DNA from: a virus
Taxonomy: Duplodnaviria > Heunggongvirae > Uroviricota > Caudoviricetes
Virus record (IMG/VR): IMGVR_UViG_2648501787_000003
DNA: 14,605 nt
Strand: one strand, 5' to 3'
Made by a program: the position numbers and the translations under genes. This document shows, piece by piece, positions 12,374-14,605 of the stretch. The notes beneath the pieces are model-generated. The model made no database searches, was not told the origin of the DNA, and saw only the letters and a program-made list of their open reading frames with translations. Every line of letters starts with the position of its first letter. The first letter of the stretch is position 1.

Positions 12374-12400
12374 AAGTTAGCGAATAAAAATCATTAGCAT

Positions 12401-12421
12401 AGGCCGCAAACTGAGCGGCCT
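12401..12421. terminator. Hairpin between convergent genes Q (+) and the 89-aa ORF (-); candidate bidirectional terminator
   Basis: aggccgc-aaactga-gcggcct (7-bp GC-rich stem, 7-nt loop), followed by tattcatt on the plus strand; located between the stop codons of the two convergent genes. Confidence 0.5.
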
Positions 12422-12427
12422 TATTCA

Positions 12428-12697
12428 TTACCAATTTCTTTTTTCGGAGTTTAGCCAATCACCGCATGGATAATATCTTGACGCCCATTCACCTTGTAAA
12501 CGAGCTACAAACAGAATATCGTTACTATCGACCCTGGCTTGGAGTCCGTCACGCAGTTGAGTTGCGGTCAGCGTTGTATCTACTAACCAAAATGATTCAA
12601 GATATTTACAGTATGTAAATTGCTTTAGATAGTCAAAAACTTCATCGTAGTTTCTTCCCGGAGCCTTCAAGTCATAGGTTATACAATAAATAGCCAT
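12428..12697 (-). CDS. Hypothetical 89-aa protein, predicted alpha/beta (ferredoxin-like beta-alpha-beta-beta-alpha-beta pattern); function unknown
   Basis: ATG at 12697 lies 3 nt after the stop of the upstream Cys-rich ORF; GGAG upstream; AT-rich codon usage unlike the structural genes; hairpin immediately after the stop. MAIYCITYDL... is a hydrophobic beta-strand-like N-terminus. No family assignment possible. Confidence 0.5.
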   Translation of the reverse strand: MAIYCITYDLKAPGRNYDEVFDYLKQFTYCKYLESFWLVDTTLTATQLRDGLQARVDSNDILFVARLQGEWASRYYPCGDWLNSEKRNW

Positions 12698-12700
12698 TCT

Positions 12701-12883
12701 CTAAGCTCCGCATTTTTTATCATTTGGGGAACATCTTAACCTGCGACATTTGCGGCAATACGATTGAGGGATCAGCCGCTCTCCTTCCATAGTTCTAAAA
12801 CCAAACACTTCTTCAATTTTGTTCAAATCACCACTTGCAATAACCCCACAGCAGGGGCAGACAGCCTCAATTTGAAATGCCAT
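12701..12883 (-). CDS. Hypothetical small Cys-rich protein (putative zinc ribbon), 60 aa
   Basis: Seven Cys in 60 aa, arranged CPCC…(30 aa)…CRKC…C…C. ATG at 12883 preceded by TGGAGATAGAC (GGAG 6 nt upstream). The track's 81-aa version starts at TTG 12946. Tightly coupled to the downstream 89-aa ORF. Confidence 0.45.
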   Translation of the reverse strand: MAFQIEAVCPCCGVIASGDLNKIEEVFGFRTMEGERLIPQSYCRKCRRLRCSPNDKKCGA

Positions 12884-12982
12884 GTCTATCTCCATTCCAC
12901 ATGTTGAATGTAGGGTAATACTTCCTTTCAAGCAAAAATGAGACAAGGATCTTGAAACCTAATTTAAACTTGCTTGCGCGCG

Positions 12983-13001
12983 CTCGTATCCCCGCCACGC
13001 C
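12983..13001 (-). other. Candidate cos site (cohesive-end region) of the P2/186 type
   Basis: Minus strand reads 5'-GGCGTGGCGGGGATACGAG-3'. By recollection the P2 and 186 cohesive ends are GGCGAGGCGGGGAAAGCAC and GGCGTGGCGGGGAAAGCAT (15/19 match to 186). Orientation relative to Q matches P2, where the 3' end of Q faces the left cos end. Confidence 0.45.
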
Positions 13002-13023
13002 TGCCCGCTTTATGTAGTAGTTT

Positions 13024-13130
13024 TCATGCAGGTGCATGATCTACGCGAAAGCCCGCCAGTTCTGGCGGGCCCTAGCAAAAACGATCCTCAAACGATCATG
13101 CGATCTCATGCAGCATAGTCATGCACGATC
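13024..13130. repeat. Cluster of TCATGC(A) repeats with five GATC sites
   Basis: TCATGCA at 13024-13030, 13106-13112 and 13119-13125; TCATGCg at 13096-13102; inverted TGCATGA at 13033-13039, forming the palindrome tcatgca-gg-tgcatga. GATC at 13038, 13083, 13094, 13102 and 13127. Confidence 0.5.
13051..13070 (-). terminator. GC-rich hairpin downstream of the 280-aa membrane-protein gene; possible terminator or cos-region structure
   Basis: gcccgccag-tt-ctggcgggc (9-bp perfect arms); on the minus strand it is followed by TTTCGCG, a weak T-tract. Confidence 0.35.
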
Positions 13131-13961
13131 ATTTGACTCAGCATCTGCTGCACGCTTGCTGCGCGAAGATGCACTTTTACTATCAATCTTTCGACAGTTC
13201 TTTCTATCCCTGGCTTCATTTTCTTTAAATTTGTTATATGTCTCAGTATCAAAAAACGAAATTGTTTCAACCTCATCTTTTGGTATGAGCACACGGAAAT
13301 CTTCGATATTAAGCCGAGACATTCCACTTATCACACCACTATCAAGATAATGTTGGTGATAGTTAGTCGTGATACTAATCGTTAGATCATCTTTATCCCG
13401 ATATCCGCTTAACATCGGGAGAAGTTCAAGGTGCTCTGAAAGCCCGTTTTCTAACGCCGGACAAGTAACAAGACCAACATAGATTTTGCGAGACGACAGA
13501 GTTGCTATGATCGGAAACTGTCTTGCGGACGCTTCCATGAGTAATGATTCGAAAGCGTTATTACCCACAGCTTTAGCTAAGGCATCCCAGCGACGATCTC
13601 CACGTGATGTGCGTAACTTATTTCCAAAACCTGAAATCGCAGCGAGGACAATTGAAATCATAACCCATGCTATCTGTTTGATTTCATTTATTCTTTGAAG
13701 TTTGTCTTTCGATGAAGACAACATGCCATTAAAACTGTCAGGTGTTAGATTCAAGGCATTAGCCAGCCAACGAAACCCTCCGCTGACGTTCAAAATAAAG
13801 GTGAAAAAACCGCCAAGGAGAAAAAAAACGATACCCCAGGCAGCCACAAAAAAATAAGCGTCCCAGCCGTTGGAACGCTTATATCGGTATCTTGTTGAAA
13901 GTGATAGGTTTACATAAATAAAACCACTAACCAAAATCACTGCTAAAAGTAATGTTGCCAT
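13119..13961 (-). CDS. Hypothetical membrane protein, 280 aa: three N-terminal TM helices plus ~160-aa C-terminal soluble domain with charged Ser/Lys/Arg-rich tail; function unknown
   Basis: Long ORF in AT-rich DNA; hydrophobic helices at about residues 2-21, 36-58 and 98-113. ATG at 13961..13959 overlaps the TAA of the upstream 71-aa ORF (TAATG), indicating translational coupling. Hairpin 13051-13070 lies ~50 nt past the stop. Confidence 0.65.
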   Translation of the reverse strand: MATLLLAVILVSGFIYVNLSLSTRYRYKRSNGWDAYFFVAAWGIVFFLLGGFFTFILNVSGGFRWLANALNLTPDSFNGMLSSSKDKLQRINEIKQIAWVMISIVLAAISGFGNKLRTSRGDRRWDALAKAVGNNAFESLLMEASARQFPIIATLSSRKIYVGLVTCPALENGLSEHLELLPMLSGYRDKDDLTISITTNYHQHYLDSGVISGMSRLNIEDFRVLIPKDEVETISFFDTETYNKFKENEARDRKNCRKIDSKSASSRSKRAADAESNDRA

Positions 13962-14176
13962 TATCTGGTTCTATTAGTTTTCTCTTTTACAGTGCTCGTT
14001 TTGATGCCTTCAAGCTTATCCATCTGTGCCTTGATGGCATCCATTGCTCTTTTGTTAGACAAGTCTACGGACACAAAACCATCTTTACTAAGATTGAGTT
14101 TGTCCTGGTTCTCTTTAAGAACCCTTGCCAGACGTTCAACTGGGTTACCCAGGCTAAATGCGGCGATGCTTGACAT
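13961..14176 (-). CDS. Hypothetical 71-aa soluble protein (predicted mostly helical, Lys/Glu-rich); first gene of a two-gene cassette
   Basis: ATG at 14176 preceded by a G-rich SD (AAAAGGGGGAGTT-ATG); stop overlaps the start of the membrane protein. The antisense plus-strand ORF 13992..14252 is the alternative reading, so confidence is moderate. Confidence 0.5.
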   Translation of the reverse strand: MSSIAAFSLGNPVERLARVLKENQDKLNLSKDGFVSVDLSNKRAMDAIKAQMDKLEGIKTSTVKEKTNRTR

Positions 14177-14486
14177 AACTCCCCCTTTTCACATGGCGCG
14201 GAAGTCTACACTCCGACGCCTACAACCTCAACAGATTATCTTTAAAATTTAGACAACAATATCATCTGTTGATTGCGTTACTTAAACTTAAGTTCAATGC
14301 GCTCGATCATGCAAGCTGTTTCTTAAGAACTGTTAATTTCCTGGCATATATAGTGGTTAAGGTAACAAATTGACACTAACGCCTCGCATAGCTCGTTGTT
14401 CAACCTTGCTGACGCCAGAAGCAAGTTCAGACGCCAGCAACGTTTCTTAATGCAGCCAGCTGTCGTCTTCCCACACCTTCTGCATA

Positions 14487-14515
14487 ATTTTCATCACTTG
14501 TTTTCTTTCTGTCAA
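14487..14515 (-). promoter_or_regulatory. Candidate sigma70 promoter in the AT-rich region upstream of the 71-aa/280-aa cassette
   Basis: Minus strand: TTGACA (14515-14510), 17-nt spacer, GAAAAT (14492-14487). It lies ~300 nt upstream of the first ATG, so it is speculative. Confidence 0.2.
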
Positions 14516-14605
14516 CGACGGATGAAAAGTGATCCACTTATATCTCCACCAACGGCCCAATATTGATCCACCGTTTTACTCAGGATTAGCTTCAGCTATA
14601 ACCCC

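Follow-up and report, generated by a model that had tools for sequence, protein, structure and literature searches.

Positions 12374 to 14605 of the viral record IMGVR_UViG_2648501787_000003, a 14,605-nucleotide stretch of Caudoviricetes DNA analyzed here over its full length (the window), very probably represent the cos-proximal cargo hotspot of a P2-like (Peduoviridae) prophage, in which two slots of exchangeable genes flank the cohesive-end packaging site cos and the dinI-like gene at the outer edge has been cut by the insertion sequence (IS) IS100. The left 12.4 kb form a canonical P2 late region, with the portal and terminase recognized by Pfam and the capsid and tail genes matched to P2. 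On the far side, we infer that the region is bounded by gpA, which would lie beyond IS100 and the end of the window, and which all relatives with identical cargo carry. Slot 1, between the portal gene Q and cos, holds orf60 and orf89; slot 2, on the other side of cos, holds orf71 and orf280 (Table 1).

An earlier interpretation made from the letters and their open reading frames (ORFs) alone, hereafter the sequence-only reading, had described a drop in GC content past Q and four minus-strand ORFs split into two pairs by cos and a hairpin, and had taken the whole for one horizontally acquired island spanning cos. Both the drop and the gene layout were readily reproduced. Sliding-window GC content lies at 0.53–0.62 as far as ~12200 and at 0.39–0.47 from there to the end of the window, with mean values of 0.561 for 1–12373 and 0.420 for 12374–14510. 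Among island-sized windows of 2137 bp, none in the core falls below 0.547; with 500-bp windows the core never drops below 0.506, compared to an island range of 0.388–0.464, and the strongest left/right contrast is found at ~12296, a short way before Q ends. The genes themselves follow the same pattern: GC at third codon positions (GC3) is 0.33–0.44 in the four island genes and 0.56–0.70 in 15 core genes, with ranges that do not overlap (Mann-Whitney p 2.6e-4), and synonymous codon usage is markedly heterogeneous between cargo and core (chi2 250.9, df 41, p 6e-32), compared to chi2 values of 32–78 for four core-gene subsets of the same size that served as controls. Because GC, GC3 and codon-usage statistics all separate the island from the core, the compositional break is real and large, and the comparison with the structural module by which the sequence-only reading had proposed to be judged came out strongly in its favor.

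The AT-rich DNA is not, however, a single block. The 145 bp surrounding cos (12974–13118) have a core-like GC content of 0.559, and the AT-rich region is therefore discontinuous across cos; the value for slot 1 DNA (12374–12973) is 0.402. We found the cos block conserved in every enterobacterial relative examined, and it is kept in loci L001, L002, L014 and L015 whatever cargo stands on either side. Its 19-mer GGCGTGGCGGGGATACGAG was set against the annotated cohesive ends of phages 186 (GGCGTGGCGGGGAAAGCAT) and P2 (GGCGAGGCGGGGAAAGCAC), its flanks align to the P2 cos junction, and four enterobacterial P2-like relatives carry the identical 19-mer in the corresponding position. The perfect hairpin inside the block lies just past the orf280 stop codon and is followed on the minus strand by TTTCGCG; we infer that it acts as a terminator or as a terminase-binding element.

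Pairwise BLAST comparisons with relatives carrying other cargo placed the homology breakpoints at 12348–12355, 12974, 13125–13128 and 14376, showing that recombination exchanges the two AT-rich slots within flanking sequences that are themselves conserved: the end of Q, the cos block at both its edges, and the flank of dinI. The outer breakpoint of slot 2 falls ~70 bp downstream of dinI. At the opposite end, homology of the relatives stops ~20–25 nt short of the Q stop codon (12348–12373), and the portal C-terminus varies with the cargo; since homology is lost before the stop, the recombination boundary of slot 1 falls within the final codons of the portal gene. Immediately beyond it, the terminator-like site at 12401–12421 reads AGGCCGC-AAACTGA-GCGGCCT followed by TATTCATT, and the P2 annotation places the terminator tQ at the equivalent position.

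The contents of the two slots were found in different sets of genomes: of 5426 complete E. coli genomes, 8 contain slot 1 DNA (12374–12973) and 52 contain the right cassette (13119–14176). In the left slot, the right cassette is accompanied by SieB, PIN, SEFIR, DUF4145, DUF262 or a 557-aa protein and, in one Klebsiella phage, by a TIR protein, and strain S56 combines the left cargo with a DUF6694 lipoprotein gene on the right, where dinI is absent. Comparison with P2-like phages, which the sequence-only reading had suggested, revealed no synteny across them: P2 leaves the Q–cos interval empty and carries old/tin on the opposite side of cos, a 557-aa gene fills this interval in E. coli 210221272, and Klebsiella phages have either a TIR gene in the Q–cos slot or three unrelated genes to the right of cos. 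Composition, codon usage and this lack of synteny together support the view that the cargo was acquired horizontally, which is correct, yet already established for the P2 phage family. That a single island was inserted whole, cos included, is barely credible, despite the AT-rich DNA on both sides of cos and the common orientation of the four ORFs, given that the cos block is core-like in composition and conserved regardless of cargo, and that the left and right cargos vary independently and are freely combined with others.

The arrangement agrees with published descriptions of the gpA–gpQ region next to cos, a hotspot for which Rousset et al. (2022; PMC9122126) give 1,650 gene arrangements in E. 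coli, and which a 2026 survey (PMC13586616) confirms. Like the P2 hotspot (old/tin, or 'TO'), the region is adjacent to cos, extends from the portal gene to the dinI/gpA side, is AT-rich, and contains unrelated genes in each relative, arranged as one- to three-gene cassettes. Unlike old/tin, the cargo here corresponds to no named system and the cassette is read toward cos, old-tin being read away from it; in a further departure from the hotspot norm, the flanking dinI is disrupted by IS100. For the AT-richness that marks P2 conversion genes, PMC5694545 cites Calendar et al. (1998), and for the gene pick-up site between cos and Q, Dodd & Egan (1996) and Nakayama et al. (1999). Slot 1 is exactly this pick-up site: as with ctx of phiCTX and ORF1-4 of phiRSY1, additional genes occupy the interval from cos to the portal gene and leave packaging and late genes undisturbed (PMC5694545). 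In contrast to phiCTX, slot 1 carries Cas2-fold and zinc-ribbon genes in place of a cytotoxin, and it is rare in E. coli. Membership does not depend on recognized anti-phage cargo, as the genes at the hotspot are all unknown in 19% of P2 elements (PMC13586616). The L001 proteins whose annotated positions match orf280 and orf71, WP_021556032 and WP_000094764 respectively, are listed as 'hypothetical' in Table S5A of Rousset et al. (PMC9122126).

Next, we considered the last 430 bp of the window, for which the sequence-only reading had proposed a regulatory leader or a small RNA, on the grounds that no ORF of 60 aa or more enters or leaves the window there. The latter statement proved incorrect, as a 260-aa IstB ORF enters at 14605 on the minus strand. 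The former survives only in small part: 14177–14375 behaves as a conserved 5' regulatory region of the cassette, and what follows is the 3' flank of dinI, a remnant of that gene and terminal IS100 sequence. We assign 14177–14375 to the cassette because homology to L002, a Klebsiella phage with different cargo, restarts only at 14376. Several blocks within it are conserved as far as Pectobacterium, including CACTATATATGC, the palindrome ACTTAAGTTTAAGT (~14282–14297), CAACAG...CTGTTG arms (14228–14272) and a Shine-Dalgarno sequence. The perfect palindrome ACTTAA-GT-TTAAGT and the 15-nt inverted arms TCAACAGAT...ATCTGTTGA (together 14228–14297) are both kept in Klebsiella and in part in Pectobacterium, a conservation that suggests an operator for some regulator. 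SOS control by way of the dinI vicinity was considered and rejected, as 12374–14605 contains no LexA box (CTGT-N8-ACAG, at most one mismatch); the number of such boxes over the whole window is at chance level.

A small RNA or structured regulatory leader across 14177–14605 is very improbable. The 270 ORF-free bp upstream of orf71, the conserved inverted repeats at 14228–14272 and 14282–14297 and the stem-loop at 14402–14444, whose stem is preserved in Klebsiella by a compensatory U-A to G-C change, would all be compatible with such an element. However, the small-RNA prediction that the sequence-only reading had called for returned no Rfam match and global folding no better than that of shuffled sequences (z −1.6 and −1.3), the conserved blocks are short, resemble DNA palindromes and are placed like a promoter and operator ahead of the Shine-Dalgarno sequence, and 14447–14605 is accounted for by dinI and IS100. 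Over the wider interval 12300–14605, a search for small RNAs, riboswitches and tRNAs gave only noise in Rfam (E <= 1) and nothing in ARAGORN.

The 20 residues of the dinI remnant are identical to the end of WP_001217568 (77 aa, annotated 'DinI-like family protein'). A complete DinI ORF (about 77–81 aa) was not encountered, as the reading frame, followed upstream of 14510, runs into IS100 and meets a stop codon there. From 14510 to 14605 the window is 98–100% identical to thousands of IS100kyp copies, with 100% identity to copies in unrelated contexts, independent IS100 copies (in gspC, in gspM and on a plasmid) are alike only from TGTCAAC onward, and GVIAEANPE, with its stop codon at 14576–14578 on the minus strand, is the C-terminus of IstB. 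By sequence, IS100 appears to have inserted into the dinI-like gene at 14510, and it is because of this insertion at the hotspot edge that the contig ends here. The gspC copy of IS100 is flanked by a 5-bp duplication, GTTTC; by analogy, CTTTC (14505–14509) is the predicted target duplication in the present case. The dinI/IS100 junction is absent from all complete E. coli genomes in the collection. Transposable elements are described as almost nonexistent in the phages and satellites covered by the 2026 survey (PMC13586616). Read outward, the IS100 terminal TGTCAA provides TTGACA, a perfect −35 element, with GAAAAT 17 nt further on, yielding a promoter-like site (14487–14515) that faces orf71-orf280 and is a putative promoter for it. 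Junction promoters are known for IS21 elements; compared to insertions of this kind with outward promoters, here the stem-loop at 14402–14444 intervenes between site and cassette.

We then turned to the cargo of slot 2. The orf71 stop codon overlaps the orf280 start at 13959–13963, and the two genes are, from this overlap, probably translationally coupled. Hydrophobic segments of orf280 at residues 1–23, 34–63 and 94–112, together with positively charged loops, predict an N-out, C-in topology, and its C-terminal domain has the features of the Sm/LSm/Hfq fold, a five-stranded bent beta-barrel preceded by a helix; the BFVD viral fold library returned weak Sm-like domain matches only. Homology to the channel MscS was rejected (hhalign probability 0.2%), the likeness being architectural only (three transmembrane segments plus an Sm-like beta domain). 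A word-indexed search detected 57 relatives of orf280, and an exhaustive profile search recovered 2881 cluster representatives, nearly all of them 240–290 aa long and full-length. The motifs LSGYRDKD and KxYVG of orf280 are invariant. Although orf280 itself has no Pfam match, distant members of the family score against DUF6338 (30.8 bits for P0211, with a cut-off of 26.5, and 23.5 bits for P0200); since only distant members do so, we regard orf280 and DUF6338 as related families and not as a case of membership. DUF6338 is uncharacterized, with a single mention, in a proteomics paper, in searchable PubMed Central (PMC) and bioRxiv full texts.

The small partner is a regular feature of the family. 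orf71-like genes with 37–61% identity (tblastn) lie upstream of orf280 homologs in other contexts and, counting one genome per species, a small ORF precedes the large gene in 61 of 75 loci with a median gap of 5 nt. These partners are ~50–75 aa long (median ORF 71 aa) and share a recurring motif, [DN]-G-x-[VIF]-x-[LV]-[ND]. The most distant orf280 relatives (24–27% identity, mostly from Pseudomonas) have no small upstream partner (L079, L089, L092–L095, L097, L100, L101, L103 and L106), and may form a separate subfamily nearer to DUF6338 proper. Many NCBI and UniRef records name proteins of the orf71 family (P0073, P0077, P0078 and P0083) 'multidrug ABC transporter ATPase', which we consider a propagated misannotation because the protein has 71 aa and the ATPase motif is absent.

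At 12 of the 14 closest loci, the pair resides in the gpA–Q hotspot of P2-like prophages, even where portal identity has fallen to ~50%. Its other contexts comprise an Enterobacter lambda-like tail cluster, an island resembling phage-inducible chromosomal islands (PICI) after TerL, plain chromosome, and a position beside the repressor of a Shewanella P2-like prophage. Because the pair recurs in many unlike contexts, we conclude that orf71-orf280 is a self-contained mobile two-gene moron. In an Aeromonas veronii siphovirus prophage (L022, 6785–7765), the cassette separates the major tail (tail tube) gene from the tape-measure gene, in the usual place of tail-assembly chaperone genes. In Pectobacterium (L006–L008, 5372–6819), an orphan dinI (77 aa), a small ORF (65 aa) and an orf280 homolog (272 aa) stand between genes for a mechanosensitive channel and a major facilitator superfamily transporter, with no prophage genes or cos within 6 kb; this trio has the appearance of a leftover from a P2-type hotspot that has otherwise decayed.

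In slot 1, orf60 and orf89 are read from the cos side toward Q. orf60 matches phrog_19700 over 60 of 60 positions (E 6e-42), and its substitutions relative to an 83%-identical Klebsiella phage are distributed 7/3/21 over the three codon positions with all cysteines kept, so that we regard it as a genuine gene. The ORF had first been read as 81 aa. Its 5' extension is interrupted by stop codons in the Klebsiella relative, which places the start at the ATG at 12883, preceded by GGAG, and leaves a protein of 60 aa. orf89 has the ferredoxin-like fold of Cas2, with strand 1 at residues 2–9 and an aspartate, D9, that is invariant in 12 homologs; D9 stands at the C-terminal end of strand 1 and was matched to the catalytic aspartate of Cas2 by position, not by residue-level superposition. 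In its beta-alpha-beta-beta-alpha-beta fold, its length of ~90 aa and this invariant aspartate, orf89 resembles Cas2 as well as TT1823, SSO8090, BPSL1038, GhoS and VapD. No Cas2 family was matched in Pfam (E <= 0.1) or NCBIfam (E <= 1), with orf89 falling below the threshold of Pfam CRISPR_Cas2, and PADLOC gave only a weak Cas2b match (E 5e-4). Unlike Cas2, orf89 occupies a phage cargo slot, and neither cas1 nor a CRISPR array is present in the window or in the surveyed neighborhoods of its homologs; we therefore describe orf89 as Cas2-like by fold and not as a CRISPR Cas2. It may perhaps be a metal-dependent nuclease-type accessory factor. Homologs of orf89 are solo genes in four contexts, beside Thoeris, beside an Eco57I-type methylase and a HATPase_c_3 protein, beside Mrr/Vsr, and on a small replicon. 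The Thoeris-linked homolog, 64% identical to orf89, is found on marine metagenome contigs (L011–L013, 106–5270) in an apparent defense island, ~2 kb from ThsA (SIR2/STALD) and ThsB (TIR) and a Tae4-like gene. An obligate orf60-orf89 pair was considered and rejected, as orf60 is confined to P2-like phages of enterobacteria, whereas orf89 has distant homologs that lack such a neighbor.

As to function, we tentatively propose, at well below even confidence, that the cassettes are lysogenic-conversion genes and that orf71-orf280 is a membrane exclusion or abortive-infection module with oligomerizing Sm-like domains. In this model, the prophage would express the cargo, the inner membrane would be where orf71-orf280 brings about superinfection exclusion or abortive infection, and the Sm-like domains of orf280 would assemble as a ring that clusters the membrane helices, with orf71, or a phage-derived nucleic acid or ligand, controlling opening or blocking DNA entry. 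Our level of confidence is guided by two priors from PMC13586616: an antiviral role is predicted for 15–32% of unknown P2-hotspot proteins, and protection against phages was shown experimentally for 6 of 8 unknown P4-hotspot loci. The design is reminiscent of RexA/RexB of lambda and SieB of P22 and lambda, which are likewise prophage morons made of a soluble and a multi-pass inner-membrane protein, and SieB occupies the neighboring slot in many relatives of this prophage. This likeness is functional only, as there is no kinship in sequence or fold, and orf280 is the large component with an Sm-like cytoplasmic domain next to a partner of just 71 aa. Cap15-type effectors of cyclic-oligonucleotide-based anti-phage signaling systems (CBASS) also combine transmembrane segments with a barrel; in contrast to these, no cyclase or signal generator is encoded near orf280. 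The best matches of the orf280 barrel are LSm/Hfq, and not Cap15 or the WYL regulators, such as BrxR, CapW and DriD. It is possible, if doubtful, that phages carry a widespread and so far unnamed immunity or exclusion system of which orf71-orf280 is the first example. In such a system, an Sm ring would gate or disrupt the inner membrane on encountering incoming phage nucleic acid, the partner would serve as trigger or brake, and the module would move as a moron among P2-like prophages, lambda-like and further siphoviral ones, and islands of the PICI type.

Several results weigh against a role in immunity. Apart from the weak Cas2 match of orf89, no PADLOC defense model matched the cargo proteins above noise, and they have no match in Pfam or NCBIfam; cargo accessions, PHROG identifiers and families go unmentioned in searchable PMC and bioRxiv full texts. 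Around 38 distant orf280 loci, the neighbors are mostly housekeeping genes, with an integrase as the sole recurrent mobile marker (7 of 139 neighbors), and enrichment near a defense island was rejected, as no defense family is enriched in these loci. PADLOC contains no member of the orf280 family. Searches of solved structures gave no sequence match for any cargo protein or profile.

Instead of excluding other phages, the cargo might serve phage counter-defense or host fitness, for instance as a Cas2 mimic acting against CRISPR adaptation or as an envelope-altering membrane protein. Such roles, which we consider unlikely, would fit a Cas2 fold without Cas1 or an array and the housekeeping neighborhoods of distant orf280 members, and P2 hotspots also carry partition systems and cytolethal distending toxin (PMC9122126). 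On the other hand, no similarity to known anti-CRISPR or virulence families was seen, and the location of orf89 homologs beside Thoeris, an Eco57I-type methylase and Mrr/Vsr suits defense and counter-defense alike. Quite unlikely, in our estimate, is an addiction or toxin-antitoxin role stabilizing the prophage, with orf60/orf89 resembling vapX/vapD or ghoS/ghoT and orf71 as antitoxin to a membrane toxin orf280. Toxin-antitoxin families were not matched in Pfam or PADLOC, and orf89 homologs stand alone in four other contexts without an orf60-like partner, which makes orf89 an unlikely toxin. Toxin-antitoxin and abortive-infection functions are not mutually exclusive.

Outside the hotspot, a local GC dip (0.48–0.50) was observed at 5002–5451 in the lysis-gene region, over a 149-aa ORF without a Pfam match, and the core subset that includes this ORF is the sole codon-usage control with raised heterogeneity (chi2 77.5, p 5e-4). 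Because of the dip and the raised heterogeneity of its subset, the ORF may be another small acquired gene.

Table 1. Features of the window and their coordinates (aa, residues; TM, transmembrane segments).
Feature	Position	Strand	Remarks
Tail I, baseplate J, V, S, R, lysozyme K, small terminase M, capsid N, scaffold O	left 12.4 kb	-	
Terminase P, portal Q	left 12.4 kb, after O	+	
Cargo slot 1, Q-to-cos	12350–12973		AT-rich (GC 0.40)
GC-rich hairpin, tQ-like terminator	12401–12421	+	between convergent Q and orf89
orf89, 89 aa, stand-alone Cas2-fold protein	12428–12697	-	phrog_1090
orf60, Cys-rich zinc-ribbon protein	12701–12883	-	phrog_19700; 3 nt upstream of orf89
Conserved cos block (packaging site)	12974–13127		GC core-like; aligns to P2 cos junction
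Cohesive-end 19-mer GGCGTGGCGGGGATACGAG	12983–13001	- (reverse complement)	
Perfect 9-bp GC-rich hairpin	arms 13051–13059 and 13062–13070	-	inverted repeat I10, 100% complementary; inside cos block
Cargo slot 2, other side of cos	about 13128–14375		AT-rich
orf280, 280 aa, predicted 3-TM inner-membrane protein with cytoplasmic Sm/Hfq/WYL-like beta-barrel	13119–13961	-	phrog_3630; distant DUF6338
orf71, 71 aa, small soluble partner	13961–14176	-	phrog_9843
Cassette-specific 5' regulatory region of orf71-orf280	14177–14375	-	homology to L002 resumes only at 14376
Conserved dinI 3' flank with stem-loop 14402–14444	14376–14446	-	kept in L002 whatever cargo; inverted repeat I1
dinI-like 3' remnant, last 20 codons and stop	14447–14509	-	homology ends at 14510
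Right (istB-proximal) end of IS100, IS21 family, including IstB C-terminus	14510–14605	-	window ends inside IS

Together, these data dissect the hotspot to base accuracy as two slots that swap independently about a conserved cos core, and document a rare IS insertion at its edge. The AT-rich island itself is textbook P2 biology, to which it adds nothing new. What the region does bring to light are two uncharacterized cargo modules that current defense catalogs (PADLOC 2.0) miss and, given that 6 of 8 unknown cargos at the sister P4 hotspot proved protective (PMC13586616), orf71-orf280 is a candidate, both well defined and cheap, for an anti-phage mechanism of a new kind acting at the membrane.

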